64,000 nt of DNA, from assembly GCF_058153355.1 (NCBI RefSeq), contig NZ_CM177019.1. One strand, written 5' to 3'. Below the pieces are notes generated by a model. The model did not search any database and was not told where the DNA came from. It saw only the letters and a program-made list of their open reading frames with translations. The position numbers and the translations under genes are program-made. This document shows positions 22,578-60,003 of the stretch, in pieces. The first letter of the stretch is position 1. Each line of letters begins with the position of its first letter.

Positions 22578-22587
22578 GCATCTTTCC

Positions 22588-23867: not shown

Positions 23868-23874
23868 CGAATGA

Positions 23875-24196: not shown

Positions 24197-24217
24197 CGGG
24201 CAAATTGAAACGCATCT

Positions 24218-24241
24218 AAGGGGGAATACCGTTTCCCCCTT
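24218..24241. terminator. GC-rich hairpin between the zorO-like ORF and the 3' end of yehK
   Basis: aagggggaa-taccg-ttccccctt 9-bp stem; flanking T tract is weak. Confidence 0.4.
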
Positions 24242-24249
24242 TAATAAAG

Positions 24250-24570: not shown

Positions 24571-24630
24571 CGCTTTTCCCGGTGGTAAGTCGTGTTGATA
24601 ACGGGCAGTCGCATCACTGCCCGCTGTGTT

Positions 24631-28287: not shown

Positions 28288-28290
28288 TCC

Positions 28291-31200: not shown

Positions 31201-32079
31201 TGCACATTTTTGCCAGAGAGACTCTTCCGCCAGTGATAAATGTTTCCGTAGGCGTAATTCAAAACTGGAATATTGCTGCAGGTTATCAGGTGCAATACCA
31301 GACGGCAGAATAATAATGGTATTATTCGCATAATCCCATTCAATATCAATCTGTTGAAGATGTATTACTACATCAGTAGCATATTCCAGGCCACCTTCCT
31401 GAACGAGCTGATCCATAACATCCTCACGCTCTTTATATCTCGTGCACTTCAGTTCAAGTGCCGTGAGTACAGCCATTACTGGTGATGGTAACTGTGTTGT
31501 TTTCAGGCAGTCGATCTGACTGAGCGCCTGGGAGATGGCGTTTTGCCATTCTAAAGAACAGGCGCTGAAGTCAAATGTGGCTGTTTTATTATCCCGTTGC
31601 AACACGCTACAGGCTAAGCGGCGTAACTGGGTCAATTCGTCTGCTTGCTGAACAGGAACTCCGGGAAAGCGGCGATGGCTTAACGTGGTGTGTACAACTT
31701 CGGGCGGAAAAACGACAGCAATATCTTTCGCCAGCCACGGTAAAACATCATCTGTATTTTTGTCAGCCACACGGGCTTCTGCTACGCAAAAGGGTTGTTC
31801 CTGAATAATGGTGGATAAGGCCGCTACCTTGAGAGAATCCGTTACCGTTTGGGAAGGTTGCAAAGAATTATCCTTCGCTTGCCCCACATACCCCTTCTTC
31901 ACCTTCTCCGCAATCAGCCTCAGTTCCGCTTTTTCCGCCGCCGCAGCATCAGCAAAGCTTTTTACCTGGCTTTGCCCGTTGGTACTGACTTTGCCCCAAC
32001 TAATATGCAGCTCGTTTCCCTGTTGCTCCACTGCCCAGAATTTATGTGATTTTTCGTCCTGATAAATATAGGTTTTCAT
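28291..32079 (-). CDS. MolR/YehH-family protein: N-terminal WGR-like domain plus DUF4132-type body (paralog A)
   Basis: 1262-aa ORF starting MKTYIYQDEKSHKFWAVEQQGNELHISWGKV…; ends …SVLDDITASELINDIEALFE. Its ribosome-binding site (AAGGAA) overlaps the stop of paralog B. Confidence 0.8.
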   Translation of the reverse strand: MKTYIYQDEKSHKFWAVEQQGNELHISWGKVSTNGQSQVKSFADAAAAEKAELRLIAEKVKKGYVGQAKDNSLQPSQTVTDSLKVAALSTIIQEQPFCVAEARVADKNTDDVLPWLAKDIAVVFPPEVVHTTLSHRRFPGVPVQQADELTQLRRLACSVLQRDNKTATFDFSACSLEWQNAISQALSQIDCLKTTQLPSPVMAVLTALELKCTRYKEREDVMDQLVQEGGLEYATDVVIHLQQIDIEWDYANNTIIILPSGIAPDNLQQYSSFELRLRKHLSLAEESLWQKCAQKLIAAIPHIPEWRQPLIALLLPEKPEIAHEIAQRLLGKKKLPSLEWLKIVATDEHILASLEKYHEPYAIFDDYYCGAILSATVLQEQGVAALPRFAPYAASDYCADVLRHINHPFALTLLIRVAGQTKRCHDRMTKACAAFPHAALAALAELLAQKEENTWRIMLMTMLISQPALAEQVTPWLSTAAVEVLKSCQQQLIQPSNHACAALLPAVLVLPPWLSKKKKSTIPVLDLAPLKLKSICTITDTEAKEFQTHWDWESHKPGEGAKDFLYSLGYRRWDFDTYKYIGASDSAIDAWEREDFATLIQMFKAHHAPYQGEWHLNSLPFLPMQTAIKLWEFLSKEPHTAVKPVMLYLRLAGMSGFLHSFSRYPQEGFAVANYFAATELAPAVARAFNKLKTLRQDARTWLLKYPEHAIIGLLPAALGKAGEAQDNARAALRMLIESGYPSLLQEIAQRYNQPEVTDAVNALLALDPLDNHPTKIPTLPAFYQPSLWTRPVLKANAQSLPDNALLHLGEMLRFPQEEALYAGLLQVKDACTADSLAEFAWDLFTAWQTAGAPSKESWAFTALGVLGNDDTARKLTPLIRAWPGESQHKRATVGLDILAAIGSDIALMQLNGIAQKLKFKALQERAKEKIADIAESRELTVAELEDRLAPDLGLDDNGSLLLDFGPRQFTVSFDETLKPFVRDASGSRLKDLPKPNKSDDETQANDAVNRYKLLKKDARTVAAQQVARLESAMCLRRRWSPENFQLFLVEHPLVCHLTRRLIWGIYSADNQLLACFRVAEDNSYSTADDDLFTLPEGDISVGIPHVLEISPTDAAAFGQLFADYELLPPFRQLDRNSYALTETERNASELTRWAGRKCPSGRVMGLANKGWMRGEPQDGGWIGWMIKPLGRWSLIMEIDEGFAVGMSPAELSAEQLLSKLWLWEGKAESYGWGINSTQEAQFSALDDITASELINDIEALFE

Positions 32080-32091
32080 TGCTAATTCCTT

Positions 32092-35000
32092 TTAATTAAA
32101 CAGTGATTCAATGTCGTTAATCAGCTCGCTGGCGGTGATGTCGTCGAGTACGGAGAAAGTGGGTGAGGATTGCTTACCATAGCGATCATAAGGGGCGATG
32201 ATTTTTACGCTTTCGACAGGCAGCAGGTCGCTATACCCCGTTTCGCCATAAATTAATGAAAAAGGTTCTGTTTCAAGTTCGAGAGCGCCATAAGGGGTAG
32301 ATTTGCGCATCGCATAGACGCTGCCGCTTTCTTCCAGACGTTGCCAGCCTCTGCGTTCCAGCCCGACAATGCGTCCGGCCTGGCAGAGACGTCCGTTCCA
32401 GCGTGACAATTCATGGACATTACGTTCGTTATCAGCAAGGTGGTAACTACCACGTTCGAGCTGTTGGAAGGGGGGAAGCAGTTCGTAATCAGCGTAAATT
32501 TGCCTGAATGCAGCGACAGATTCAGGGGGGATTTCCAGCATATGCGGAATACCGATGTTTCCTGCTGGTAGCGTGAATAGCTCATCCTGCATATCGCTGT
32601 AAGTGCTGTCTTCTGCGACCCGGAAGCAGGCAATCAGCGTGTTTTCCTCAGTATATACTCCCCATAACAGCCGTCGGGTTAAGTGACGTACCAGCGGATG
32701 CTCCACCAGAAACAGGCGGAACTGTTCTGCCGTCCAGCGTCTGCGCTGGCACATAGCCTGCTCCAGACGATCAATCTGCTGACTGGCAATGGCGCGCACA
32801 TCTTTCTTCAATTGTTTGAAGAGGTTAACGGCGTCAGTTGCCAGTGTTTTATCATCGCTCTGATTTGGTTTGGGTAAATCTTTCAGGACTTTGCCGTTTG
32901 CATCGCGCACTACAGGTTTTAAGGTTTCGTCAAAACCAACGGTGAATTGACGTGGGCCGAAATCCAGTATCAGCGAGCCACTGCTATCAAGCCCTAAATC
33001 TGGAGCCAGGCGGTCTTCCAGTTCAGCCATTGTCAGTCCGCGATTTTCGGCGACCATATTGATTTTGTCGCGGGCGTGTTCCTGCAATGCTTTGAATTTA
33101 ATTTTTTGTGCAATGCCATTAAGCAGCATCAGCGCAATATCGCTACCGATACTGGCTAACACATCCAGCCCAGAAACCGCACGTTTATGCTGGGATTCAC
33201 CCGGCCAGACCCGGATAAGCGGGGTTAGTTTACGCGCGGTGTCGTCATTGCCTAAAATCCCCAGCGAGGTAAATGCCCAGTTTTCTTTTGCGGGCGCGCC
33301 AGATTCCATCCATGCCGTGTAGAGATCCCAGCCAAAGTCAGCCAGTGATTCCCGGGTGAAGGTCTCTTTGATGATCGCCAGCCCAGCGTAGGAGGTAATG
33401 TCGCGTGGAAAGCTCAATATTGTGCCCAGGTGGCGCATAGCGTCATCGGGCAGAGGCAGGTTGTTACTTTTAAGCCGTGGTCTGCGCCATAAGGTGAACT
33501 GATAAAAGCCGGGCAGTGGGGCGATTTTTGCAGGATATTCTTCCAGTGGATCGCTATCGAACAATGTTGCCAGCGCAGCTAAAACATCAGGTTGATTATA
33601 TCCCCGGGCGATTTCCTCAATCGTTTCTCGCTGGTTTAAATTCACCAGCAGGCGAAGCGCCTGGCGGGCACAATCACGATCTTTTCCTTTTTTGCCCAGG
33701 GCCACAGGAAGTAGCCCGGCGGCGGCATGGTGTGGGAAGTTAGCCAGCCATTTTCGGGCATCTTCATAAGACATTTTTTTCTGTAATCGCTGCGCCATCG
33801 GTAATGCTAATTCGCTGACGCCCAGGAAAAGGGTGAATATCCACAACTGTTGTGGCTTACGTTGCAGACATTTCATAAACGCAGGAATGGCCGCATCACC
33901 AAAAATCGCCAGAATTTCTCTCTCGCCGGAGAATTGCTCTTCATTAATTATTTGATTGAGAAAAGAAATAGCATGCTGAGTGGGTAGGAAGCAGAGCGCG
34001 TACAACTGCCAGTGTCTGCTTCCTTTATTATGGTATTGCGCAAACTCTGCTTTCAGCGCGGGGAAATCGAAACGTAACAGGGCCTCAACTGCGCTTTGTG
34101 GCATTATTTTTTTTTCGTATTGTTCTTCTCCGGTTCTGCTCCATTCCTTAAACCCCAGTCGCCAAAGGATTTGCTGTTCTGGCGTTAAAGGGATGAAAGA
34201 CGTTTCCCAGCTTTCCTTTTCAATTAGTGGCAGATCGGTAAATAAGGTTTGCTGTGATGCCTGATATTTCGCGATTTCACTGAATCTGGATATGTCAGTG
34301 TGACTGATTAACTCTGTAATTCCAGGTGTGATGTCAGTGACGGAAGGGATGGGAAGTACCGGTAAATCAAATACGGGTATTACATTCTTTTTCTTATTTA
34401 TTGCCCACGGTGGAGCGACAAGCAGTTCTGGCAACATATTCGCAGTGGCATACTCACATTCTTTAGCTACTGACTGAGGACGACATTCAGATAAGATGCC
34501 TGCCGCTTTAGCATTAACCCAGGGAATGACGTCGCGTACTAACTCTGGCGTGACGGTAACCAGTTTGACAAGCGCGTTGCGCCACTGTGCATCTTCATGT
34601 ATTGCCAGCAAAGTAGCATAAGCGGCAATAGCCGCAGCGGGATGTTTTTGGCAGGCTTTGCTTAAGTATTCCAGGTGCTTTTTCTTGCCATTTACACCGA
34701 GGATCAGAATTTGAATCGCATCCGGGTGATTCGTTTTCCATAGCCATTTGACAAGATCTTCAGTCTCGCTGATGCGCTCGAAGAGATAAGTGGGATTGTC
34801 AGAATGCTCTTCCGTAAACTCAGTAAGTATCCGGCTTACACCGCGCCCCCCATTATTTGCCAGCAACATTGCCAGATAAGCGCGAAAATCACGATACAAC
34901 GGTGGGAAGTCGTATTTTTCTGCTGTAGTCAGAGCTATATCATCGGTTACTACCACTCTTAACCAGGTTATCGCCGGAACGTTTTGGTCTGCATAGCGTA

Positions 35001-41456: not shown

Positions 41457-43937
41457 ATGTTGAGAATGACCCCACTTGCATCAGCAATCGTAGCGTTATT
41501 GCTTGGCATTGAAGCTTATGCGGCTGAAGAAACTTTTGATACTCATTTTATGATAGGTGGAATGAAAGACCAGCAGGTTGCAAATATTCGTCTTGATGAT
41601 AATCAACCCTTGCCAGGGCAGTATGAAATCGATATTTATGTCAATAAGCAATGGCGAGGGAAATACGAGGTTATCGTTAAAGATAATCACGAAGAAACAT
41701 GCCTGGAAAGGGAAATTATAAAGCGATTGGGTTTTAATACCGATAACTTTGCCAGCGGTAAGCAATGTTTAACATTTGAGCAACTTGTTCACGGTGGGAG
41801 CTATACCTGGGATATCGGAGTTTTTCGTCTCGATTTCAGTGTACCGCAGGCGTGGGTGGAAGAACTGGAAAGTGGCTATGTTCCACCGGAAAACTGGGAG
41901 CGGGGTATTAATGCGTTTTATACCTCTTATTATGTGAGTCAGTATTACAGCGACTATAAAGCGTCGGGTAATAGCAAGAGTACATATGTACGTTTTAACA
42001 GCGGGTTAAACTTACTGGGGTGGCAACTGCATTCTGATGCCAGTTTAAGTAAAACAAATAGCAATCCAGGGGTGTGGAAAAGCAATACCCTGTATCTGGA
42101 ACGTGGATTTGCCCAACTTCTCGGCACGCTTCGCGTGGGTGATATGTACACATCAAGCGATATTTTTGATTCTGTTCGCTTCAGCGGTGTGCGGTTGTTT
42201 CGTGATATGCAGATGTTGCCTAACTCGAAACAAAATTTTACTCCACGGGTGCAGGGGATTGCTCAGAGTAACGCGCTGGTAACTATTGAACAGAACGGTT
42301 TTGTGGTTTATCAGAAAGAGGTTCCTCCTGGCCCGTTTGCGATTACAGATTTGCAGTTGGCCGGTGGTGGAGCAGATCTTGATGTCAGCGTGAAAGAGGC
42401 GGACGGTTCGGTAACCACCTATCTGGTGCCTTATGCAGCAGTGCCGAATATGCTGCAACCCGGCGTGTCGAAATATGATTTTGCGGCAGGTCGTAGCCAT
42501 ATTGAAGGGGCGAGCAAACAAAGTGATTTTGTTCAGGCGGGTTATCAGTATGGTTTTAATAACTTATTGACGCTGTATGGCGGATCGATGGTCGCGAATA
42601 ATTATTACGCGTTCACTTTGGGGACTGGCTGGAATACACGCATTGGTGCCATTTCCGTCGATGCCACGAAGTCGCATAGTAAACAAGACAACGGCGATGT
42701 GTTTGACGGGCAAAGTTATCAAATTGCCTACAACAAATTTGTGAGCCAAACGTCGACGCGTTTTGGTCTGGCGGCCTGGCGTTATTCGTCGCGTGATTAC
42801 CGGACATTTAACGATCACGTTTGGGCAAACAATAAAGATAATTATCGCCGTGATGAAAACGATATCTATGACATTGCCGATTATTACCAGAACGATTTTG
42901 GCCGTAAAAATAGCTTTTCTGCCAATATGAGCCAGTCATTGCCAGAAGGCTGGGGTTCTGTGTCTTTAAGTACGTTATGGCGAGATTACTGGGGGCGTAG
43001 CGGCAGCAGTAAGGATTATCAGTTGAGTTATTCCAACAACCTGCGACGGATAAGCTATACCCTCGCGGCAAGCCAGGCTTATGACGAGAATCATCATGAA
43101 GAGAAACGTTTTAATATTTTTATATCGATTCCCTTTGATTGGGGTGATGACGTTACGACGCCTCGTCGGCAAATATATATGTCTAACTCAACGACGTTTG
43201 ATGATCAGGGTTTTGCCTCAAATAATACGGGATTATCGGGAACCTTTGGAAGCCGGGATCAATTTAACTATGGGGTCAACCTGAGTCATCAGCATCAGGG
43301 AAATGAAACGACAGCTGGAGCGAATTTAACCTGGAACGCGCCGGTTGCGACAGTGAATGGCAGTTATAGTCAGTCGAGTGCTTATCGACAAGCTGGAGCC
43401 AGTATTTCAGGGGGCATTGTCGCCTGGTCGGGTGGCGTTAATCTGGCGAACCGTCTTTCCGAAACGTTTGCTGTAATGAACGCACCTGGAATTAAAGATG
43501 CTTATGTCAATGGGCAAAAATATCGTACAACAAATCGTAATGGAGTGGTGGTATACGACGGAATGACACCTTATCGGGAAAATCACCTGATGCTGGATGT
43601 GTCGCAAAGCGATAGTGAAACAGAATTACGTGGTAACCGGAAAATTGCCGCACCTTATCGCGGCGCGGTCGTACTGGTTAATTTTGATACCGATCAGCGC
43701 AAGCCCTGGTTTATAAAAGCGTTAAGAGCGGATGGGCAACCATTAACGTTTGGTTATGAAGTCAATGATATCCACGGTCACAATATTGGTGTTGTCGGTC
43801 AGGGAAGCCAGTTATTTATTCGCACTAATGATGTACCGCCATCGGTTAATGTGGCAATTGATAAACAACAAGGGCTCTCATGCACAATCACCTTCGGTAA
43901 AGAGATTGATGAAAATAGGAACTATATTTGCCAGTAA
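41457..43937 (+). CDS. yehB: Fimbrial outer-membrane usher
   Basis: 826-aa beta-barrel usher; start at MLRMTPLASA… with GCAGGAG upstream. Confidence 0.85.
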   Translation: MLRMTPLASAIVALLLGIEAYAAEETFDTHFMIGGMKDQQVANIRLDDNQPLPGQYEIDIYVNKQWRGKYEVIVKDNHEETCLEREIIKRLGFNTDNFASGKQCLTFEQLVHGGSYTWDIGVFRLDFSVPQAWVEELESGYVPPENWERGINAFYTSYYVSQYYSDYKASGNSKSTYVRFNSGLNLLGWQLHSDASLSKTNSNPGVWKSNTLYLERGFAQLLGTLRVGDMYTSSDIFDSVRFSGVRLFRDMQMLPNSKQNFTPRVQGIAQSNALVTIEQNGFVVYQKEVPPGPFAITDLQLAGGGADLDVSVKEADGSVTTYLVPYAAVPNMLQPGVSKYDFAAGRSHIEGASKQSDFVQAGYQYGFNNLLTLYGGSMVANNYYAFTLGTGWNTRIGAISVDATKSHSKQDNGDVFDGQSYQIAYNKFVSQTSTRFGLAAWRYSSRDYRTFNDHVWANNKDNYRRDENDIYDIADYYQNDFGRKNSFSANMSQSLPEGWGSVSLSTLWRDYWGRSGSSKDYQLSYSNNLRRISYTLAASQAYDENHHEEKRFNIFISIPFDWGDDVTTPRRQIYMSNSTTFDDQGFASNNTGLSGTFGSRDQFNYGVNLSHQHQGNETTAGANLTWNAPVATVNGSYSQSSAYRQAGASISGGIVAWSGGVNLANRLSETFAVMNAPGIKDAYVNGQKYRTTNRNGVVVYDGMTPYRENHLMLDVSQSDSETELRGNRKIAAPYRGAVVLVNFDTDQRKPWFIKALRADGQPLTFGYEVNDIHGHNIGVVGQGSQLFIRTNDVPPSVNVAIDKQQGLSCTITFGKEIDENRNYICQ

Positions 43938-43952
43938 TAATCGGGTGGCTCT

Positions 43953-44987
43953 ATGAAAATTCGCATAATGTTATTTATATTAATTATGATGGTAATGCCT
44001 GTGAGTTATGCAGCATGTTATGGAGAGTTATCTGCCCAGCATAATTTTGCTGTTCAGGGGGATTTTGCACTTACTCAAACACAAATGGCAACATATGAGC
44101 ATAATTTTAATGATTCGTCATGCGTGAGTACAAATACTATCACCCCTATGAGCCCGTCGGATATTATTGTTGGACTTTATAACGATACCATTAAATTAAA
44201 TTTACATTTTGAATGGATCAATAAAAACAACATCACGTTGTCAAATAATCAGACCAGTTTCACCAATGGTTATTCGGTAACGGTGACACCTGCGGCCAGT
44301 AATGCAAAAGTGAATGTTTCTGCGGGGGGCGGCGGTTCAGTGATGATTAATGGTGTTGCGACATTATCCAGTGCTTCATCATCGACACGCGGGAGTGCTG
44401 CAGTACAATTTTTACTGTGTTTATTCGGTGGCAAGTCATGGGATGCATGTGTAAATAGCTACAGAAATGCATTGGCACAAAATGCAGGTGTCTATTCCTT
44501 TAATCTGACATTGTCATACAACCCGATAACCACAACCTGCAAACCGGACGATTTATTAATTACTTTAGAGAGTATTCCCGTTTCACAATTACCAGCTACA
44601 GGTAACAAAGCAACAATAAATAGTAACAAAGGGGATATTGTTCTGCGTTGTAAAAACTTATTAGGTCAACAAAATCAAACATCACGGAAAATGCAGGTGT
44701 ATTTATCAAGTTCTGACTTGTTAACCAACAGCAACACAATACTGAAAGGTGCGGAAGATAATGGCGTAGGATTTATTCTTGAAAGTAATGGTTCTCCAGT
44801 CACACTTTTAAATATCACTAACAGCAGTAAAGAATACACAAATTTAAAAGAAATTGCGGCAAAGTCAAAACTTACAGATACAACGGTTTCAATTCCGATA
44901 ACTGCCAGTTACTACGTCTACGATACAAATAAAATTAAATCTGGCGCACTGGAGGCAACCGCATTAATCAACGTGAAATACGACTAA
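43953..44987 (+). CDS. yehA: Fimbrial protein, adhesin-like
   Basis: 344-aa exported ORF, last gene of the chaperone-usher operon. Confidence 0.75.
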   Translation: MKIRIMLFILIMMVMPVSYAACYGELSAQHNFAVQGDFALTQTQMATYEHNFNDSSCVSTNTITPMSPSDIIVGLYNDTIKLNLHFEWINKNNITLSNNQTSFTNGYSVTVTPAASNAKVNVSAGGGGSVMINGVATLSSASSSTRGSAAVQFLLCLFGGKSWDACVNSYRNALAQNAGVYSFNLTLSYNPITTTCKPDDLLITLESIPVSQLPATGNKATINSNKGDIVLRCKNLLGQQNQTSRKMQVYLSSSDLLTNSNTILKGAEDNGVGFILESNGSPVTLLNITNSSKEYTNLKEIAAKSKLTDTTVSIPITASYYVYDTNKIKSGALEATALINVKYD

Positions 44988-45043
44988 TAACAAGCAAGAC
45001 GAGCAAGTGGCTAATAATAAAAAATAACAAGGTGTCTGCATTT

Positions 45044-45070
45044 CCCCCTCATGATGAGGGGGCTTTTTTT
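45044..45070 (+). terminator. Rho-independent terminator after yehA
   Basis: ccccctc-atgat-gaggggg stem followed by CTTTTTTT. Confidence 0.6.
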
Positions 45071-45407
45071 AGCGATGATAAAAAATCTCACCATCGTAGG
45101 CTTTAATGATTTTACCGTCGGTGTCGCTGATCAACACGTACGCGCCACCCATATAGGTCCAGTGCGTCCCGGCATCAGGCGCGGGCAGGTTACGTAACTG
45201 CCACTGCTTAATGTTGTACTCATCGGTGCGGTACATCTCTGGGACGGTATCGCCTGGTTTGAAATGCTTAAAGTCAGCAATGAAACTGCTTAACTCATAC
45301 TTAGAAATTCCCGAGGTATTGGTCGAACCCGCGGTGGCTGGTGCGGCCCAGGCGGCACTGGTAACCAGCAAAAGCACACCCAGCAACATCTTATTTTTAA
45401 TGGTCAT
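45069..45407 (-). CDS. rcnB: Periplasmic protein modulating Ni/Co efflux
   Basis: 112-aa product with signal peptide, MTIKNKMLLGVLLLVTSAAWA…; the track ORF extends 60 codons upstream of this start. Confidence 0.8.
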   Translation of the reverse strand: MTIKNKMLLGVLLLVTSAAWAAPATAGSTNTSGISKYELSSFIADFKHFKPGDTVPEMYRTDEYNIKQWQLRNLPAPDAGTHWTYMGGAYVLISDTDGKIIKAYDGEIFYHR

Positions 45408-45625
45408 AAACTCTCCACTTTGGGGATCTGTAATATCAGTCGCATATCTTTCCTGCCATACAATATAACTGACAAGCGATATTTTGTTAGTGATCCCATG
45501 ATTTCGTAAAAAGTGTAAATGAAAGGATGCCCTAAAAGCATCCTTAGCGAGCAGAGAGCCAGCGGAAATAGCTGATTTAAGAATCATCCTGGGCTGAAGA
45601 TAACATGCAAGCCTAAAGGATTGAG

Positions 45626-46447
45626 TTATCGCATTATGCCCATAAAGCCATGTACGCCCATATACACACCAACTAAGCCAATCAACAGACTGGAAAAATA
45701 GGGGGCGCGTTTAGCGAGAGTGTTAAATCCGCTCCAGCGTTTTGCGACCTGCTGAACGCTGATTGCTGCGCCAATGCCTACGGTGACCAGCGTTAACGCA
45801 AGGCCAATGCTGAAACTGACGACCAGTGTTGCGCCCAGTGTCAGGGCTTTCAACTGAATGCAAATCAACAGCACGGTAATTGCTGCCGGGCAGGGGATAA
45901 GGCCACCGGTTAAGCCAAATAACAAAATTTGCCAGTTGGTGACCTCTCTACCATCGAAGCGTCGTTTAATGTCATTGGCATGGGCTCGTGCATGAGCATC
46001 CTGATACTCCCCATGTTCGTGATGGTGATGATGTCCATGGTCGTGGTGATCTTCGTGATCGTGATGATACTCATGATCATGCCCGTGCATATTCTCCAGC
46101 CAGTTGCGTTCGCCGCGCCAGGTACGCCAGAACATCCAGAACGCGGTGCCAATAATGATCACCGCGGAAATCAACTGGAGCCACGGTTCTGCAGATTGAG
46201 CAGTAAAACGTTTGCTGATCACCATCCCGCCAAAGGCAATCAACCAGACCACCGCGGTATGCGAAATGGTTGCTGCCAGTCCGAGCATCACCGCCTGTTT
46301 AATGGTGCCTTTGATGGCGATGATAAACGCCGCCATCATCGTTTTTGAGTGCCCTGGTTCCAGGCCATGAAGCGCACCAAGTAAGATGGCGCTGGGGATG
46401 AAGAACCAGGCATTTCCTTGCTGAAGAAGAGTGGTAAATTCGGTCAT
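45626..46447 (-). CDS. rcnA: Nickel/cobalt efflux membrane protein
   Basis: Polytopic ORF with an extremely His-rich loop (HGHDHEYHHDHEDHHDHGHHHHHEHG). Confidence 0.9.
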   Translation of the reverse strand: MTEFTTLLQQGNAWFFIPSAILLGALHGLEPGHSKTMMAAFIIAIKGTIKQAVMLGLAATISHTAVVWLIAFGGMVISKRFTAQSAEPWLQLISAVIIIGTAFWMFWRTWRGERNWLENMHGHDHEYHHDHEDHHDHGHHHHHEHGEYQDAHARAHANDIKRRFDGREVTNWQILLFGLTGGLIPCPAAITVLLICIQLKALTLGATLVVSFSIGLALTLVTVGIGAAISVQQVAKRWSGFNTLAKRAPYFSSLLIGLVGVYMGVHGFMGIMR

Positions 46448-46484
46448 GATAATAATTCTTAGTATTAATTCGGCAATCCGATTC

Positions 46485-46518
46485 TACTCCCCCCCAGTAC
46501 CTGATACTACCCCCAGTA
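46485..46518. promoter_or_regulatory. Tandem RcnR operator sites in the rcnA-rcnR divergent promoter
   Basis: TACT-C7-AGTA at 46485-46499 and TACT-AC5-AGTA at 46505-46518, the G/C-tract inverted repeats described for RcnR/CsoR-family binding. Confidence 0.6.
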
Positions 46519-46566
46519 GAATAATAGTGCTATGATTTTTCATGTTCTTGTTAACCAGGTGTTGCC

Positions 46567-46839
46567 ATGTCTCATACAATCCGTGATAAACAGAAACTGA
46601 AAGCGCGTGCCAGTAAGATTCAGGGCCAGGTCGTGGCGCTCAAGAAAATGCTCGACGAGCCGCACGAATGCGCAGCTGTTCTACAACAGATTGCTGCTAT
46701 CCGTGGCGCGGTAAACGGCCTGATGCGCGAAGTGATTAAGGGGCATCTGACGGAACACATCGTTCACCAGGGGGATGAGCTAAAACGTGAAGAAGATCTG
46801 GATGTCGTTCTGAAGGTGCTGGATTCTTATATCAAATGA
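46567..46839 (+). CDS. rcnR: Ni/Co-responsive repressor (CsoR/RcnR family)
   Basis: 90-aa ORF recognised as RcnR. Confidence 0.9.
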
Positions 46840-46908
46840 AAGTGCCTAATATGGCCGTAGTTGAGGCAATAAATAGAGGGACAAGTGACGTTAAGCTGAA
46901 TTAGAGTA

Positions 46909-46932
46909 AATGGCGTGAGGACACACGCCATT
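46909..46932. terminator. Hairpin between rcnR and the convergent small-protein gene
   Basis: aatggcgtg-aggaca-cacgccatt. Confidence 0.4.
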
Positions 46933-46948
46933 CGAGGATATAGTTTGA

Positions 46949-47263
46949 TTAATTTTCGAAAAATTGCTTCACAGCCCAGCCACCATGACCACCTGGAGTT
47001 ATGAATGAAACAAAACCTTTGTCATCGACGCTCTGGATTTCTACTGTCATTGATTCATCTAACACGCGACATTTATTGGATGTAATGAGACTCAGCATAG
47101 CCTGTTGGTCATTGTCCTGGATGTAACTGATCATCTCGTAAAAGTCAGTTAACTTTTTACAGTTAAATGTACCTTCTTTAAGTGTTGCGCTGTCTCCGTG
47201 ACTTAGTGCGAATGCATTTGGCATCATTGCCACAAAGATGACGGTAACGAGTAGTTTTTTCAT
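46949..47263 (-). CDS. Small secreted hypothetical protein (104 aa)
   Basis: Signal peptide (MKKLLVTVIFVAMMPNAFA); lies in a visibly AT-rich segment. Confidence 0.55.
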   Translation of the reverse strand: MKKLLVTVIFVAMMPNAFALSHGDSATLKEGTFNCKKLTDFYEMISYIQDNDQQAMLSLITSNKCRVLDESMTVEIQSVDDKGFVSFITPGGHGGWAVKQFFEN

Positions 47264-47272
47264 TGTAGCCTC

Positions 47273-47620
47273 TTATAATTCAGAACATTCACTGATGTTG
47301 TAAGTGCCTTTTCTACCATCATCGTTTACGAGATGTAGCACGAAGATGATGGGATTGGCATCAATGAAAGATACAGAGACGTTCCCGCTTTCGGTGCTAT
47401 ACATCTTTGCAATCTGTTTTTCACCAATATATGAAAGATCCCAACTCACTCCGTTCAAGCTAAAATGCATCTGTTTGCCGTCAATATCGATGGAGGATTG
47501 TGCCGTAACGGTTTTCCCATTGCTGCCAATTTGACCCTGCTGAAGAGCATCACATTTATAGGAGCTTGCATAAGTAAATAGAGGTAGTAGCAGAAGTGCA
47601 GCAAAAATTTTACTCTTCAT
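47273..47620 (-). CDS. Small secreted hypothetical protein (115 aa)
   Basis: Signal peptide (MKSKIFAALLLLPLFTYASS), two Cys residues; 9 nt upstream of the 104-aa ORF, so probably a bicistron. Confidence 0.55.
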   Translation of the reverse strand: MKSKIFAALLLLPLFTYASSYKCDALQQGQIGSNGKTVTAQSSIDIDGKQMHFSLNGVSWDLSYIGEKQIAKMYSTESGNVSVSFIDANPIIFVLHLVNDDGRKGTYNISECSEL

Positions 47621-48258
47621 ATTTTCCCTTTGCTTGGATTTGAGTTACCTATTTTGGGGTAGTCATTATAAAACTATTAATTAGTAAAATGAACAAGTTT
47701 TCATTTGTTTAGTAATGGTATTGTTTAGGTTTGAAATTATTACGTACTTTCATAGCAATAGGTTGGATAAACAGCAGTTCAGAGAACAAGTTGCACTATC
47801 TACATACTTTCCCGCTTTCCATTGTATGTTAGGTAATAGATAGCCTTTGCCCGTAAGACTAAAAATATTAGAAATGACTCATTCGAATACCTTCTATTCA
47901 CCTTAATATAGGTTTGATTATTGTAATCGTTTAATGTGTCTTATGGATTTTTTCCTACTTTTCATTTGCATAATATAGGGGGCACAGCATGCTCTTGAAA
48001 TTAATTATTAAGATATTTAAATTTTACAGCACACAACTACTTTTCGTTGTCTTATGTGTTGAACGTACTTCGAGTATAGGTAGGGTTGTATATATATTGC
48101 GTGGGTAGAGTTAGAATAGAGGAGGCATCATTTATAGAATATTCAAGAACGTTAACCTGTGATCAATAAATAAAAATATCAAATGGTGTTCAAACATATT
48201 TTTCTATGAAAAATCCAGCCATCTATGATGAATTTTTAGATCCATTTTAATTAAAGTA

Positions 48259-48537
48259 TGATTATGAACCAATATTTAGCCAAGAATGGTGGTATAGCGC
48301 GTATCCAATGACACCGGAAAACGCATCTATGAAGTCCTTGTTTATCTCTATAAGAGGAAATCAACACTAATAAAATATAGTGATGTAACACATCGAGCAG
48401 GTTGCTCTGATGCTGGTCTTCAACTGTGGCTTAAACAGCTATCAAACTTCGGTGTTATTGAGATGAAAGAATTATCTTTCTCAACTTTCAATCTCAAAAA
48501 GCTAGAGGAAATAGACCTTAATTATTCCACTCTCTAA
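48259..48537 (+). pseudogene. Possible frameshifted gene remnant
   Basis: ATG-initiated frame MIMNQYLAKNGGIARIQ* continues after a +1 shift as …VSNDTGKRIYEVLVYLYKRKSTLIKYSDVTHRAGCSDAGLQLWLKQLSNFGVIEMKELSFSTFNLKKLEEIDLNYSTL*; no clean start or RBS for the long frame. Confidence 0.2.
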
Positions 48538-48673
48538 ACTTATCTCTTTATTTAAAGTAAAAATGAAAATATTATGGTATCAGCTACGTGGTGGTAACTG
48601 GTGTTTATGATCATAGGTACACATATACAGGGAACCCTGGAAAACAAAAGTAATATATTGATGATTTCGTTTG

Positions 48674-48913
48674 TTATAACTTCGTGGTATCAAGTCCGGC
48701 GGCTTTGAGTCGCTCGGTAAGATTTCTCATTTTGCTGAACTCTGTACCAAAGCTGGCTTTAAGTCCTACACCTTCGCAAAACTCTTTTGCCGTGACGTTT
48801 TTAAGATGGTCAGCGTATTTGATCATCTGGAGGTGCATTTCCATCGTTTGGCTATTTCGTGGTGCGCTGCTAATGGCTTGCTTAATGTTCTCGTAGATCT
48901 GGGTTTCTGTCAT
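48674..48913 (-). CDS. Hypothetical 79-aa protein
   Basis: Intact ORF (MTETQIYENIKQAISSAPRNSQ…) with AT-rich upstream region containing tandem direct repeats. Confidence 0.5.
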   Translation of the reverse strand: MTETQIYENIKQAISSAPRNSQTMEMHLQMIKYADHLKNVTAKEFCEGVGLKASFGTEFSKMRNLTERLKAAGLDTTKL

Positions 48914-48934
48914 TTTTTATCTCACCTATCAAAT

Positions 48935-48964
48935 TTAGATAAATAATATAAATTAGATAAATAA
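48935..48964. promoter_or_regulatory. Two direct repeats TTAGATAAATAA (18-bp register) just upstream of the 79-aa ORF
   Basis: Exact 12-nt repeats at 48935-48946 and 48953-48964. Confidence 0.3.
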
Positions 48965-49129
48965 GATAATCAATAGTTTTTACCATATGAATAATGGATG
49001 TGGATTGTTTCTTTTTCATTTCTGATATGGAGTACAAAATGGGGTCACAATGAAGAAGCGATGAATGGAGGCGAGCTTGCATCTGCAAGCCTCTTCCCCT
49101 AATCTGGCACAAAATATAGAGATTCAACC

Positions 49130-49258
49130 AAACGACTCGGGGTGCCCTTCTGCGTGAAGGCTGAGAAATACCCGTATCACCTGATCTGGATAATGCCAGC
49201 GTAGGGAAGTCACGGACCACCAGGTCATTGCTTCTTCACGTTATGGCAGGAGCAAACT
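49130..49258 (+). ncRNA. TPP (THI-box) riboswitch in the thiM leader
   Basis: cggggtgcccttctgcgtgaaggctgagaaatacccgtatcacctgatctggataatgccagcgtagggaa matches the canonical thiM aptamer; the expression platform runs into the thiM ribosome-binding site. Confidence 0.8.
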
Positions 49259-50047
49259 ATGCAAGTCGACCTGCTGAGTTCCGCGCAATCTGCGCACGCG
49301 TTACACCTTTTTCACCAACATTCCCCTCTTGTGCATTGCATGACCAATGATGTGGTGCAAACCTTTACTGCCAATACCTTGCTGGCGCTCGGTGCATCGC
49401 CAGCGATGGTTATCGAAACCGAAGAAGCCAGTCAGTTTGCGGCTATCGCCAGTGCCTTGCTAATTAACGTCGGCACGCAGACGCAGCCACGCGCACAGGC
49501 GATGCGTGCTGCCGTTGAACAGGCAACACACTCTCAAACCCCCTGGACGCTTGATCCGGTCGCGGTTGGCGCACTCGATTATCGTCGCCGTTTTTGTCAT
49601 GAACTTTTATCTTTTAAACCGGCAGCGATACGTGGTAATGCTTCGGAAATCATGGCATTAGCTGGCGTTGCTAATGGTGGACGGGGAGTGGACACCACTG
49701 ACGCCGCAGCTAATGCGATACCCGCTGCACAAACACTGGCACGGGAAACTGGCGCAATCGTCGTGGTCACAGGCGAGGTGGATTATGTTACCGATGGTCG
49801 TCGCACCGTTGGCATTCACGGCGGCAATCCGTTAATGACCAAAGTGGTAGGAACTGGCTGTGCATTATCGGCAGTTGTCACTGCCTGTTGCGCATTACCA
49901 GGCGATATGCTGGAAAATATCGCATCTGCCTGTCACTGGATGAAACAAGCCGGAGAACGCGCCGTCGCCAGAAGTGAAGGGCCTGGCAGTTTTGTTCCCC
50001 ATTTTCTTGATGCGCTCTGGCAATTGACGAAGGAGGTGCAGGCATGA
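49259..50047 (+). CDS. thiM: Hydroxyethylthiazole kinase
   Basis: 262-aa ORF recognised as ThiM, directly downstream of the riboswitch. Confidence 0.9.
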
Positions 50048-51778: not shown

Positions 51779-52525
51779 ATGGAACAAGCGCATACCCAGC
51801 TGATTGCCCAACTGAACGAACGTATTTTAGCGGCGGATAACACGCCGCTTTATATTAAGTTTGCCGAAACGGTGAAAAATGCCGTGCGCAGCGGGGTGCT
51901 GGAACATGGCAATATTTTACCCGGCGAGCGCGATTTAAGTCAGTTAACCGGCGTTTCGCGTATTACGGTGCGCAAGGCGATGCAGGCGCTGGAAGAAGAG
52001 GGCGTGGTGACACGTTCGCGCGGCTACGGCACGCAGATTAATAACATCTTTGAATACTCGTTAAAAGAAGCGCGAGGATTTTCTCAGCAGGTGGTGTTGC
52101 GCGGGAAAAAGCCCGATACGCTATGGGTTAACAAGCGAATGGTTAAATGCCCTGAAGAGGTGGCGCAGCAATTGGCGGTCGAAGCGGGTAGTGATGTCTT
52201 TTTGCTTAAGCGTATTCGCTATGTTGATGAAGAAGCGGTCTCTATTGAGGAGTCGTGGGTTCCGGCGCATTTAATTCATGATGTTGATGCCATCGGAATC
52301 TCTCTTTATGACTACTTCCGCAGTCAGCATATTTTTCCAAAGCGTACCCGTTCCCGCGTTAGCGCCCGGATGCCGGATGCCGAGTTTCAGTCACATATTC
52401 AATTAGATAGTAAAATACCGGTGCTGGTGATCAAGCAAGTGGCGCTTGACCAACAGCAACGGCCTATTGAGTACAGCATCAGCCACTGTCGCAGTGATCT
52501 ATACGTTTTTGTGTGTGAGGAGTAG
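51779..52525 (+). CDS. yegW: GntR/HutC-family transcriptional regulator
   Basis: N-terminal winged HTH (…SVRITVRKAMQALEEEG…) and UTRA-like C-terminal domain. Confidence 0.8.
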   Translation: MEQAHTQLIAQLNERILAADNTPLYIKFAETVKNAVRSGVLEHGNILPGERDLSQLTGVSRITVRKAMQALEEEGVVTRSRGYGTQINNIFEYSLKEARGFSQQVVLRGKKPDTLWVNKRMVKCPEEVAQQLAVEAGSDVFLLKRIRYVDEEAVSIEESWVPAHLIHDVDAIGISLYDYFRSQHIFPKRTRSRVSARMPDAEFQSHIQLDSKIPVLVIKQVALDQQQRPIEYSISHCRSDLYVFVCEE

Positions 52526-53464
52526 TTCCTCGCGGGTTGGCGCGCAATCACCGCCGCGATGCCCGACAACCCACGACGCCACTGCATTGCCCAGCAATAC
52601 GGCATCCGCCAGTGGCAAACCAGAGGCCAGTCCAGCTAATACGCCACCTGCATGACTGTCGCCCGCCCCAATGGTGTCTACAACTTGCGTTGGAAATGCC
52701 GGGATGCAGCCAGAAGCGTTATTGCTGAAATACCATGCGCCTTCTTTATCCAGACGGACGATCAACGACGCGGCAAATTTCTCCTGCCATTGTTTGCCAA
52801 GTGTTGTTATCTCTGCGGATAAAGCAAAACGTTCGGCGGCAATCTCAGCCTCTTGACGATTGAGTGACACTAAAGGTCGACAGGCCATGATCCGCGCCAG
52901 TAATGCATCCGGGATATCGCCAATACGTGGGCCAAAATCGATGAACGGCGTCACGTCTTGCAGACTCTCCAGCCATTCCACTAATAATTCACCGCAGGGC
53001 GAGGCCAGTTGATAACCGGAAAAATAGAGCAGGCTGCCAGGCGCAACGGTTAATCGCGCCAACCATTCGCGATTCCACTGATTTTCCACACCACTGAACG
53101 ACATAAACGTGCGTTCACCATCAGGCTCAACCAGCGCCAGACACCAGCCGTTATCGCCTTCGGCGTTATCGATGAGGCTGATTAATCCTTCTTTCGCCAT
53201 CCGGTTACGAATAATTTCCGCCCACACACCCTGGCCGAGCGGCAGGGCATTACCCGCTTCGATACCGAGGCGATTTAACGCCACGGCAATATTCAGTGCA
53301 CAGCCGCCAACGTTAACGCTCTGCTGTTTCAGTTCGATATCGCACCCACGCCAGGGTAGGGCATAAGCGTCGGCGATCACATCAATGACCGCCGCGCCGA
53401 CGACCATCACCGGCTGACGCGTGGTTAATTCAGGCAGCAGCGTGTGTAATCGAGCGCCGCTCAT
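52499..53464 (-). CDS. yegV: PfkB-family carbohydrate/nucleoside kinase
   Basis: PfkB-like motifs (DTIGAGDSHAGG); its 3' end overlaps the 3' end of convergent yegW by 27 bp. Confidence 0.8.
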   Translation of the reverse strand: MSGARLHTLLPELTTRQPVMVVGAAVIDVIADAYALPWRGCDIELKQQSVNVGGCALNIAVALNRLGIEAGNALPLGQGVWAEIIRNRMAKEGLISLIDNAEGDNGWCLALVEPDGERTFMSFSGVENQWNREWLARLTVAPGSLLYFSGYQLASPCGELLVEWLESLQDVTPFIDFGPRIGDIPDALLARIMACRPLVSLNRQEAEIAAERFALSAEITTLGKQWQEKFAASLIVRLDKEGAWYFSNNASGCIPAFPTQVVDTIGAGDSHAGGVLAGLASGLPLADAVLLGNAVASWVVGHRGGDCAPTREELLLTHKNV

Positions 53465-54465
53465 ACCGCCTCCCGTTGTTGGCGATACTTCGCCAGCGCC
53501 GTGGCGTAATGATTAAAATCAAGCTGATTTACCGCATCCAGCTCCGTCTTAAACGCAGGATCGATAGCGTTAACGCCATGCAATGCGCCGCAAATCGCCG
53601 TCGCCATAGCGCCGATGGTGTCTGTGTCGCCGCCAAGATTGGCGCACAGAATGGCGCAGCGATTCGGGTCGGTTTGTGCCAGTTCAACCAGCGCAATGGC
53701 GCACGGAACGGACTCAATAGTGCTGGTACCTGCGCCAATGACCTGGTAAAGCTGTTCGCTGGCGGATTCGGTGCCGTCGGCATTGCGCACAATTTTCAGC
53801 GCAATCTCCAGACGTGCTGCCAGTGAGGCGCTGAAGGTAGTGATGCGTTTTTGCTGTGCATGTCGCGCAATTGAAGGCAGTGAATCAACAATCGCTGACC
53901 AGCTTTCTCCGTCAATGGCACGAGAAACCGCCCATGCGATGACTACCGCGCCTGCCACCGCCAGATCGGATTTATGAGTCGGGCTGGACGCCAGCGCTAC
54001 ATCATCAATAAAGGAATCAACATCACGCGCCGGAAGCAAACAACCTAATGGCGAGACGCGCATCGCTGCGCCGTTAGTCACGCCATTGTTTTCCAGTTCA
54101 GCAACGGGTTTACCGTCGCGAATGGCGTTAAGCGCAATCTTCGAAGTTGGGCCAAGCACGTTTTTGTTAAAGGCGTTGAAACGCAGCGCCCAGTCGAGAA
54201 TATTACGCCCAATCAGATCCGGATCGATCTCGCCTTCACGTTCCAGTAACGCATCCGCCAGACACAGCGCCATTGAGGTATCGTCGGTGAATTCGGCGCG
54301 GTTAAAATAACAGGCCGCGTTATTCTCCTTTGGTCCAGGCAGAAAACGGTCAATCCAGCCAAAGTGTGCTTTAACGCGGCTGCGTGGCCAAAGCTCGGAG
54401 GGCATCCCCATCGCATCCCCTAACGCCTGCCCATAAAGAGCACCGAGAATACGTTCTGTTTTCAT
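53461..54465 (-). CDS. yegU: ADP-ribosylglycohydrolase-family protein
   Basis: 334-aa ORF with ADP-ribosylglycohydrolase-like N-terminus; ATGA overlap with yegV. Confidence 0.75.
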   Translation of the reverse strand: MKTERILGALYGQALGDAMGMPSELWPRSRVKAHFGWIDRFLPGPKENNAACYFNRAEFTDDTSMALCLADALLEREGEIDPDLIGRNILDWALRFNAFNKNVLGPTSKIALNAIRDGKPVAELENNGVTNGAAMRVSPLGCLLPARDVDSFIDDVALASSPTHKSDLAVAGAVVIAWAVSRAIDGESWSAIVDSLPSIARHAQQKRITTFSASLAARLEIALKIVRNADGTESASEQLYQVIGAGTSTIESVPCAIALVELAQTDPNRCAILCANLGGDTDTIGAMATAICGALHGVNAIDPAFKTELDAVNQLDFNHYATALAKYRQQREAV

Positions 54466-55739
54466 TTAACTTCCCCTTGTGTCAACGCAATATCGCGATC
54501 ATCGACCTTGATAGCCGTAATTTCGTTGTCGGATTCGCGGAAAAAAATCATGAACAGCACGGCGATAATGGCAATCATCACCGCGCCGAAAGTCCACATC
54601 CCGGACCAGTTGAAAGTCAGTCCGTTTACCGGTTCCGGATAAGCGAACATTTTCTCCATCATCACACCGCCAAGACGATAGCCGAGCAAACTGCCGAATC
54701 CCTGGCAGCAGAGCGTGATCAGCCCCTGCGCAGCGGTACGCATATGCACGGGGGCTTTTTTATCGACATAGATGTAAGCGGTAACGTAGTAAAAATCGTA
54801 ACTTACTCCATGCAGCAAAATGCCAAGGAACAGTAACGCGTAGGTGAAATATTCATCCGCACTACCGTAAATAAAGAAGCCATAGCGGATCGCAGCGGTG
54901 ACCAGACCAAGTAATAATACCTTTTTGATACCAAAGCGTTTGGTAAAAAACGGCAATGCCAGCATAAAGAAGATTTCAGAGAACTGGCCGAGCGTCATCC
55001 AGCCGGTGGCGTTTTTCATGCCGACTTCTGTCAGATAACCGTTGGCAAAGATGTAATAGAACGCCAGTGGCATCGCAAACAGGAATGAACAGAAGAAAAA
55101 GACGAGGAAGTTTTTATCGCGCAGCAGGATCAGCGCATCCAGGCCTAGCATGACTTTAATGTCCATTTTGCCGGTGCTTTTTGGCGGCGTGTCGGGCAGG
55201 AAAAACGCAAACACACCGAGTAATGCGGAGCTTCCGGCGGTAATTAATAGTGGAATATTGGTCGGTGAGATATCGTCATATCCCAGCATCTGAGGCAGGA
55301 ATCCGCAGACCAGGCCAGAGGCAATCCAGCCTATAGTCCCCAGTACGCGAATGCGCGGAAAATCGCGCTCCACATCCGGGACGTTAGCAAACGCGATGCT
55401 GTTAGTCAGCGCAATGGTCGGCATATAGGTCAATGAGTAGGCCAGCAGTAACGGGAAGAACCCGGCAAAAGTAGTCTGTTGCGCAGCGAAATACATCAGC
55501 ACCGCACCAGCGAACATCAATACCGCCAGCACTTTCTGCGCCGAGAAAAAGCGGTCAGTGATGGAGCCAACCAGAATTGGCGACAGGATCGCCGCAATGG
55601 CGGTACAGGCATACGACCAGCCAATTTCCCCGGCACTAAAACCGCTTTTACTTAACCACAACCACAATGGCACAAACCACGCGCCCCAGATAAACCATTC
55701 AACAAACATCATGAACGACAGCTTTGCTGTTGTTTTCAT
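54462..55739 (-). CDS. yegT: Nucleoside:H+ symporter-family transporter (MFS)
   Basis: 425-aa 12-TM ORF; ATGA overlap with yegU. Confidence 0.8.
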   Translation of the reverse strand: MKTTAKLSFMMFVEWFIWGAWFVPLWLWLSKSGFSAGEIGWSYACTAIAAILSPILVGSITDRFFSAQKVLAVLMFAGAVLMYFAAQQTTFAGFFPLLLAYSLTYMPTIALTNSIAFANVPDVERDFPRIRVLGTIGWIASGLVCGFLPQMLGYDDISPTNIPLLITAGSSALLGVFAFFLPDTPPKSTGKMDIKVMLGLDALILLRDKNFLVFFFCSFLFAMPLAFYYIFANGYLTEVGMKNATGWMTLGQFSEIFFMLALPFFTKRFGIKKVLLLGLVTAAIRYGFFIYGSADEYFTYALLFLGILLHGVSYDFYYVTAYIYVDKKAPVHMRTAAQGLITLCCQGFGSLLGYRLGGVMMEKMFAYPEPVNGLTFNWSGMWTFGAVMIAIIAVLFMIFFRESDNEITAIKVDDRDIALTQGEVK

Positions 55740-55995
55740 CTTTTAATTCCTTCATGACAGGTAATGTAAGGTACGCGATGACAATACCATTTAATAATAC
55801 CTTTTAAATACCTTTGCGGTGAAAACTTGACCGCGGTAACATTTTTTCTGATGAATCGAGCCAACAGAAAACGCTGAAAAAACATCCAAAAGATGGAAAA
55901 ACTCGCCTGTAACGACCAGGATTATGATTGCCCGCAAAAGGCGGGCCAGGACAATCCATAGCCGATATCCAATCGGAATTTACGGGAGCATAGTA

Positions 55996-57048
55996 ATGAC
56001 AGATATTGCGCAGTTGCTTGGCAAAGACGCCGACAACCTTTTACAGCACCGTTGTATGACTATTCCTTCTGACCAGCTTTATCTCCCCGGACATGACTAC
56101 GTAGACCGCGTGATGATTGACAATAATCGCCCGCCAGCGGTGTTACGTAATATGCAGACGTTGTACAACACCGGGCGCCTGGCTGGCACAGGATATCTTT
56201 CTATTCTGCCGGTTGACCAGGGCGTTGAGCACTCTGCCGGAGCTTCATTTGCCGCTAACCCGCTCTACTTTGACCCGAAAAACATTGTTGAACTGGCGAT
56301 CGAAGCGGGCTGTAACTGTGTGGCGTCAACCTACGGCGTGCTGGCATCGGTATCGCGGCGTTACGCGCATCGCATTCCATTCCTCGTCAAACTTAATCAC
56401 AACGAGACGCTAAGTTACCCGAATACCTACGATCAAACGCTGTATGCCAGCGTGGAGCAGGCGTTCAACATGGGCGCGGTGGCGGTTGGCGCGACCATCT
56501 ATTTTGGCTCGGAAGAGTCACGTCGCCAGATTGAAGAAATTTCTGCGGCCTTTGAACGTGCGCACGAACTGGGCATGGTGACCGTGCTGTGGGCCTATTT
56601 GCGTAACTCCGCCTTTAAGAAAGATGGCGTTGATTACCATGTTTCCGCCGACCTGACAGGTCAGGCGAACCATCTGGCGGCAACCATAGGTGCAGATATC
56701 GTCAAACAAAAAATGGCGGAAAATAACGGCGGTTATAAAGCGATTAATTACGGTTATACCGACGATCGCGTGTACAGCAAGTTGACCAGCGAAAACCCGA
56801 TTGATCTGGTGCGTTATCAGTTAGCTAACTGCTATATGGGCCGGGCAGGGTTGATAAACTCCGGCGGTGCTGCAGGCGGTGAAACTGACCTCAGCGATGC
56901 AGTGCGTACTGCGGTCATCAACAAACGCGCTGGCGGAATGGGGCTGATTCTTGGACGTAAGGCGTTCAAGAAATCGATGGCTGACGGCGTGAAACTGATT
57001 AACGCCGTGCAGGACGTTTATCTCGATAGCAAAATTACTATCGCCTGA
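55996..57048 (+). CDS. fbaB: Class I fructose-bisphosphate aldolase
   Basis: 350-aa ORF; start at [11 protein letters not shown]… with GGGAG upstream. Confidence 0.9.
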
Positions 57049-57064
57049 TACGCCTCATACGAAC

Positions 57065-57210
57065 AGCACTACCCCGTAGGGCGGATAAGGCGTTCACACC
57101 GCATCCGGCAACCTATGCCTGATGCGACGCTGAAGCGTCTTATCATGCCTACACAGCGCTGCCACGTATGCCGGATAAGGCGTTTACGTTGCATCTGGCA
57201 TAAAAACACG
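57065..57210. repeat. REP/BIME cluster (about three REP units) after fbaB
   Basis: Repeated ggataaggcgtt(c/t)ac(a/g)c(c/t)gcatc(c/t)ggca and tgcctgatgcgacgc units. Confidence 0.55.
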
Positions 57211-57217
57211 CGCACTT

Positions 57218-57248
57218 CGTTACGGCTTCCCCCGGGAGGCCGTTTTTT
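57218..57248 (+). terminator. Rho-independent terminator
   Basis: cggcttccc-cc-gggaggccg stem followed by eight T. Confidence 0.6.
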
Positions 57249-57298
57249 TTACCTGTCATTCTGATTAATTTTCATATTGTCGTTTTTGTGATCGTTAT

Positions 57299-58232
<934 letters not shown>

Positions 58233-58233
58233 A

Positions 58234-59510
<1,277 letters not shown>

Positions 59511-59519
59511 GGACGGTAT

Positions 59520-59969
59520 ATGACTAACCTGTTTGTTCGTAGCGGAATTTCTTTTGTCGATCGTAGCGAAGTTTTAACCCATATCGGTAATGAGATGATC
59601 GCGAAAGGTGTGGTTCATGAAACCTGGCCACAGGCATTAATTGCCAGAGAAGCAGAATTCCCCACCGGGATAATGCTTGAACAGCACGCCATTGCAATAC
59701 CGCATTGTGAGGCGATTCATGCTAAGTCGTCAGCTATTTATCTGTTAAGACCGGCGAATAAAATAAAGTTTCAGCAAGCTGATGATGATAACGACGTGGC
59801 GGTGTCGTTGATTATCGCGCTGATTGTCGAAAATCCGCAGCAGCAACTGAAGCTTTTGCGGTGCTTATTTGGCAAGTTGCAGCAACCAGATATCGTTGAA
59901 ACGCTAATCACCATTTCTGAATCGCAATTAAAGGAATATTTCACACAGCATATTTTAGATTCCGAATAA
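59520..59969 (+). CDS. gatA: Galactitol PTS enzyme IIA
   Basis: 149-aa ORF with PTS IIA-like sequence. Confidence 0.85.
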   Translation: MTNLFVRSGISFVDRSEVLTHIGNEMIAKGVVHETWPQALIAREAEFPTGIMLEQHAIAIPHCEAIHAKSSAIYLLRPANKIKFQQADDDNDVAVSLIIALIVENPQQQLKLLRCLFGKLQQPDIVETLITISESQLKEYFTQHILDSE

Positions 59970-60003
59970 CCAAAAACCTCTGTACCAATAAAAAGGATTG
60001 ATT

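Follow-up and report, generated by a model that had tools for sequence, protein, structure and literature searches.

The window analysed here, i.e. the whole stretch of DNA of 64,000 nucleotides, carries genes for a nickel and cobalt efflux transporter (rcnA) and for a metal-responsive repressor (rcnR) in divergent orientation, together with an accessory gene (rcnB) that lies downstream of rcnA and points in the same direction:

45069..45407, minus strand: rcnB (yohN), accessory periplasmic subunit, collinear with the annotated 339-bp rcnB of L086, the nearest E. coli genome
45626..46447, minus strand: rcnA, Ni/Co efflux transporter with a His-rich loop, 273 aa (NF007454, E 4e-167)
46567..46839, plus strand: rcnR, Ni(II)/Co(II)-responsive repressor, 90 aa (NF011613 equivalog, E 4e-59)

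The match to NF007454 spans the full length of the rcnA ORF, and this gene bears the label rcnA in all E. coli matches. The rcnB ORF was taken from an internal start and gave no match in NCBIfam at E <= 1e-3. RcnR is intact and 100% identical to the E. coli protein, and it scores 197 bits against NF011613, for which the curated cutoff is 138; its second NCBIfam match is FrmR, its closest paralogue, at E 1.6e-21. RcnRs are defined by an H-C-H-H metal-ligand motif (PMC11672702), and His3, Cys35, His60 and His64 are all present in the translation.

Two short palindromes are found inside the 119-bp gap between rcnA and rcnR (46448-46566), which is a divergent intergenic region because it is bounded by the rcnA ORF on the minus strand and the rcnR ORF on the plus strand. 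The first-pass annotation had described TACT-C7-AGTA and TACT-AC5-AGTA as adjacent motifs in a divergent promoter region, and the sequence reads exactly so:

46481..46488, no strand assigned: left arm of an outer inverted repeat, ATTCTACT; its right arm, AGTAGAAT, lies at 46515-46522
46485..46499, no strand assigned: putative RcnR operator site 1, TACT-C7-AGTA, TACTCCCCCCCAGTA; identical in K-12 and at least 90% conserved in 79 loci
46500..46504, no strand assigned: spacer CCTGA between the two putative operators, 5 bp; its length is conserved and its sequence is free
46505..46518, no strand assigned: putative RcnR operator site 2, TACT-A-C5-AGTA, TACTACCCCCAGTA, 14 bp; one C under the canonical TACT-A-C6-AGTA

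Read on the minus strand, site 1 is TACT-G7-AGTA and fits the consensus TACT-G6-N-AGTA. Site 2 is TACT-G5-T-AGTA on that strand, with 6 bp between the half-sites, one base under the consensus. Both motifs had been said to match the RcnR palindromes: this held for site 1, while site 2 proved to be orthologous to an RcnR site but 14 rather than 15 bp long. An exact match to the published consensus, TACTGGGGGGNAGTA, occurs once in the 64-kb window, namely at site 1, against 0.00 expected (100 shuffles). Loosened to TACT-N7-AGTA, the motif occurs once against 0.37 expected, and TACT-N6-AGTA occurs twice against 0.30 expected, a count of at least two being reached in just 4 of 100 shuffles. The pair is enclosed by the perfect 8-nt outer inverted repeat, the arms of which are 100% complementary and 26 nt apart.

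With the 311 bp that surround the site as query, 5363 of 5426 complete E. coli genomes gave a match, and every time the match lies between annotated rcnA and rcnR. Aligned to K-12 MG1655, the window shows no difference in site 1, in the spacer or in the half-sites of site 2, and in K-12 both sites fit TACT-G6-N-AGTA exactly. The K-12 operator thus shares with the window its locus, flanking genes and repressor protein, as well as site 1, the 5-bp CCTGA spacer and the -10 elements. The two differ in site 2, which in K-12 has C6, is 15 bp long and leaves a half-site gap of 7 bp (N7), whereas the window has C5 (N6); without the one C, site 2 is therefore 14 bp long, its half-sites are 6 bp apart and it departs from the published consensus. 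Centre to centre, the sites are 19.5 bp apart in the window and 20 bp apart in K-12. Three flanking SNPs also separate the two sequences, and it is to one of these that the outer inverted repeat of the window owes its perfect 8-nt match.

In the literature RcnR operators are given as TACT-G6-N-AGTA with one tetramer per site, and later papers trace the sites to Iwig & Chivers 2009 (J Mol Biol 393:514) and Blaha et al. 2011 (Biochimie 93:434); the footprint boundaries used here rest on the consensus as quoted by these later papers (PMC7055735, PMC3902906, PMC5146963, PMC7105576). At the TACT/AGTA half-sites RcnR contacts the minor groove, and the site has A-form character owing to its unbroken G/C tract (PMC3902906). 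The phasing of the tandem sites is taken from the literature (PMC5146963), and for sites of the type-1 family a half-site gap of 6-9 bp is quoted, a range within which site 2 falls (PMC3902906). Binding of apo-RcnR and its release by Ni(II) or Co(II) have been described on the orthologous DNA of E. coli and Salmonella, with a canonical site 2 (PMC7055735, PMC3902906, PMC5146963, PMC5016687). The rcnRAPro region of Salmonella enterica (Osman et al. 2016, PMC5016687) resembles the present locus in its tandem type-1 sites, its two RcnR tetramers and the release by nickel and cobalt: a 35-bp duplex with both sites is bound by two tetramers of Salmonella RcnR, with a K_DNA of 1.5e-7 M for apo-RcnR, no less than 5.9e-6 M in the presence of Ni(II) and no less than 1.5e-5 M in the presence of Co(II) (PMC5016687). 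Its spacer and flanks are unlike those of the window, and its RcnR is 93-94% identical. The type strain of S. enterica subsp. arizonae (L029) shares TACTACCCCCAGTA at site 2 with the window. More distant are the type-2 CsoR operators, for example that of Streptomyces lividans CsoR, which are likewise G/C-tract pseudopalindromes with GTA dyads that are partly recognised by shape, but which have an interrupted tract, repeats about 11 bp apart and two tetramers per site, in contrast to one tetramer per site in RcnR (PMC3902906).

Transcription start sites were taken from a genome-wide 5' RACE study of K-12 (Kim et al. 2012, PMC3415461 Table S1) and transferred to the window by aligning the 51-nt promoter sequences. 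That study reports a 23-nt 5' UTR for rcnR (11 reads), a 27-nt 5' UTR for the main start of rcnA (25 reads) and a 48-nt 5' UTR for a minor rcnA start (12 reads) (PMC3415461). In the window this gives:

46474, minus strand: main transcription start of rcnA, mapped from K-12
46481..46486, minus strand: -10 hexamer TAGAAT of the main rcnA promoter, predicted from the mapped K-12 start; 70-90% or more conserved
46495, minus strand: upstream minor transcription start of rcnA, inside site 1, mapped from K-12
46528..46536, plus strand: extended -10 element TGcTATGAT of rcnR, assigned by its position relative to the mapped start
46544, plus strand: transcription start of rcnR, mapped from K-12

The start base of rcnR is an A in K-12 and a G in the window (alignment column 118). 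With these starts, site 1 occupies -11 to -25 of the main rcnA promoter, and the rcnA -10 hexamer and the outer half-site of that operator have 2 bp in common; site 2 occupies -31 to -44 of PrcnA and -39 to -26 of PrcnR. Both sites therefore overlap core promoter elements of rcnA and rcnR (-10, spacer, -35) as placed by the transferred K-12 starts. Across 79 loci the TG, the TA and the final T of the extended -10 element of rcnR are at least 90% conserved. PrcnA has been reported to be weak, and its poor -35 match is consistent with that (PMC7105576). A consensus scan proposed one promoter on each strand. The minus-strand candidate, TTGCCG-16-TATTAT, ends 2 bp from the start codon (ATG) of rcnA, and the plus-strand candidate, TTAACC-18-TACAAT, extends into the coding sequence of rcnR; both conflict with the mapped starts and were rejected.

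Conservation of the region was followed by a protein scan for RcnR with one genome per species, which gave 80 loci in Escherichia, Citrobacter, Salmonella, Raoultella, Kosakonia, Rahnella, Hafnia, Erwinia, Edwardsiella, Morganella and one Vibrio. The conservation analysis covers 79 loci from about 78 species, namely the window and 78 of the 80. A tandem pair lies upstream of rcnR in 70 of the 79, which is a stronger case against chance than the shuffle counts. Among these 70 tandem loci the half-sites are 7 bp apart at both sites (N7/N7) in 66, the two sites start 20 bp apart, just as they do in the window, in 69, and the spacer has a length of 5 bp in 69, yet occurs in 26 different sequences. 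By alignment column (79 loci), positions 46481-46499 and 46504-46518 are mostly at least 90% conserved, against 10-40% in the spacer and low values in the flanks; this profile is a textbook phylogenetic footprint. Several lineages carry variants of the site-2 tract (ACCACCC, ACTGCCC, ACCTCCC, ATCCCCC) that retain the 7-bp spacing, and hence the length of the tract is constrained more than its sequence. What the comparison adds is that the half-site gap (7 bp) and the length of the spacer (5 bp) vary less than the bases of the spacer itself, and tight spacing with a free spacer sequence fits recognition by shape and phasing. A single TACT-C7-AGTA without a tandem partner was found in Morganella (L080-L084), Edwardsiella anguillarum (L077), Erwinia psidii (L076) and an Enterobacter sp. 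(L055).

Two observations concern individual lineages of this set. In Mangrovibacter and Kosakonia arachidis the site-2 tract is interrupted and the 7-bp spacing is retained. In Escherichia whittamii Sa2BVA5 (L012) a deletion of about 148 bp between AACCAGG direct repeats (about 46412-46552 of the window) takes out the two RcnR operators along with the promoters of both genes and the 5' end of rcnA, and the start of rcnR is fused to sequence from within rcnA.

Taken from sequence comparison, these data make it very probable that the two palindromes form a tandem operator of RcnR, of the CsoR/RcnR family, common to the divergent rcnA(-rcnB) and rcnR promoters. The identification as RcnR sites in the first-pass annotation is upheld by the base-for-base alignment to K-12, by the adjoining rcnA and rcnR genes and by a repressor that is 100% identical to that of E. 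coli, and its view that this is familiar biology is borne out by the orthology with the RcnR operators of the literature. As is established for RcnR of E. coli and of Salmonella, one RcnR tetramer without bound metal would occupy each TACT...AGTA site, touching the AT-rich half-sites and reading the shape of the G/C tract. Site 1 would then lie over the spacer of the rcnA promoter and touch its -10 element, and site 2 would lie over the -35 regions of both promoters; judging from the mapped start sites, the bound repressor would keep RNA polymerase off both. Since the operators cover core promoter elements, occlusion is the natural reading for the repression of both genes. Occlusion of both promoters would agree with the work of Blaha et al. 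2011, which according to its title reportedly found rcnA and rcnR to be repressed via a common operator. According to the literature, Ni(II) or Co(II) on RcnR weakens its DNA binding; the genes for the efflux pump and for the repressor would then be transcribed. The operator finding is already known biology, and the rcnA-rcnR intergenic region is explained by a well-characterised regulatory element with nothing unexplained left in it. The earlier statement that the operators account for this region is right as to its regulatory identity, but they are not its sole occupants: core promoters, 5' UTRs and ribosome-binding regions lie there as well.

Could the palindromes be bound by another regulator, or be fortuitous repeats or a hairpin with no role for RcnR? 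FrmR, the closest paralogue of RcnR, is one candidate, and its E. coli sites at Pfrm are tandem G/C-tract sites of type 1 too (PMC5146963). However, these FrmR sites carry ATAC/GTAT half-sites around 9-bp GC-rich tracts instead of TACT/AGTA, and they belong to another operon with formaldehyde as the effector (PMC5146963), while the present motif accompanies rcnR across about 78 species. A terminator-like site was looked for around the palindromes and none was found, and the chance expectation of the consensus in the window is zero. Cross-binding by FrmR was rejected because the half-sites differ and the motif goes with rcnR, and we consider this whole group of readings scarcely credible. Only slightly better placed, and still very improbable, is the idea that the C tracts constitute a phase-variable contingency locus, in which slippage switches rcnA and rcnR by way of promoter and operator geometry. 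Length variants do occur in both tracts: site 2 has a C5 form, and site 1 has forms with C6, C8 and C9. A hypermutable switch, however, predicts a broad spread of lengths, and a 42-mer that covers all of site 2 and the site-1 tract is identical to the K-12 allele in 5069 of 5352 E. coli genomes (about 95%); the exact N7/N7 arrangement is kept across genera as given above, and runs of C5-C7 are short for efficient slippage. Phase variation was rejected as largely refuted by the population data.

More weight has to be given to the possibility that the operator identity holds and the C missing from site 2 was lost through an error in sequencing or assembling the homopolymer, the true genome reading TACT-A-C6-AGTA. 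The C5 allele is very rare: apart from the window it occurs, as an exact 41-mer, in 18 of 5344 complete E. coli genomes and in one of 78 other species representatives, the type strain of S. enterica subsp. arizonae (L029), and N6 at site 2 is found in just 2 of the 70 tandem loci. In contigs of short-read metagenome assemblies it is absent, against 67 with the canonical form; with about 0.3% expected, this confirms its rarity at most. The E. coli carriers are unrelated strains that group by sequencing project, with five ET and three CDC 201xC strains among them, which suggests homopolymer errors in those assemblies as an effect of technology. O157:H7 ATCC 43889 has C5, while other O157:H7 genomes match the 311-base query over 312 bases, consistent with C6, and variants of the site-1 tract (C6, C8, C9) are sporadic in assemblies as well. 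On the other hand, about 39 kb compared with the nearest genome (about 98% identity) hold no other single-base homopolymer indel and no coding frameshift, and the window is not error-prone in appearance; moreover, the identical variant is present in the arizonae type-strain assembly. The error level of C5-bearing E. coli assemblies was looked at in the local annotation of ET82 and ATCC 43889, where a few pseudogenes and, in ET82, many strain-unique protein accessions were noted. Considering both sides, we lean somewhat towards a real slippage allele in the window, and an isolated sequencing error keeps a substantial chance that falls short of even.

The tandem RcnR operator stands under either reading of the short tract. 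If N6 at site 2 is real, it probably weakens RcnR binding there, since N7 is so strongly conserved; one bp off the half-site spacing corresponds to about 34 degrees of twist. As such, this rare spacing variant would be a natural test of the sensitivity of RcnR to tract length. A further-reaching scenario, in which the contraction of site 2 is genuine and recurrent, weaker binding at the -35 site partially derepresses rcnR and rcnA, and slippage of the tract reversibly resets the set-point of nickel and cobalt efflux, appears unlikely to us.

Several minor observations were made on the tracts and genes named above and on the rest of the window. The variants of the site-1 tract (equivalent to 46489-46495 of the window) are C6 in ETEC1702, C8 in strain A8 and C9 in strain 2824, and in A8 and ET82 the annotation gives rcnA as a pseudogene, interrupted by an internal stop. 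At 45610-45628, which covers the 3' end of rcnA and the rcnB-rcnA spacer, the window has an insertion of 13-14 bp relative to the nearest E. coli genome. The rcnA/rcnB region is 88-93% identical to E. coli species representatives and diverges more than the operator region; among the species representatives compared over the rcn region, none was close to the window. Two small ORFs on the minus strand between rcnR and thiM (46949-47263 and 47273-47620) begin with signal-peptide-like N-termini; they had no match in Pfam or NCBIfam and are labelled 'outer membrane protein' and 'hypothetical' in RefSeq. ET82 is without these two ORFs, and there a TPP riboswitch follows directly after rcnR.

The best complete E. 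coli genomes are 98.5% identical to the window over 43000-50000 and 97.5% identical over 52000-60000, and the former interval is covered to at least 80% in just 335 of 5424 E. coli genomes. By these identities the window would seem to belong to a lineage of Escherichia that the set of complete E. coli genomes does not include. At 62206-63631 an insertion of about 1.43 kb interrupts gatD in comparison with the nearest E. coli genome. It contains an ORF for an IS4-family transposase (62219-63565, minus strand; Pfam Nterm_IS4 and DDE_Tnp_1), and in the reference its two flanks share 13 bp, resembling a target-site duplication. A segment of about 16 kb (17702-34045) is absent from the nearest genome. 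It carries yehQ/P/M/L-like genes (SWIM, VWA_CoxE, DUF5682, AAA_5) and three large tandem DUF4132/WGR paralogues of 1218, 1262 and 1265 aa.
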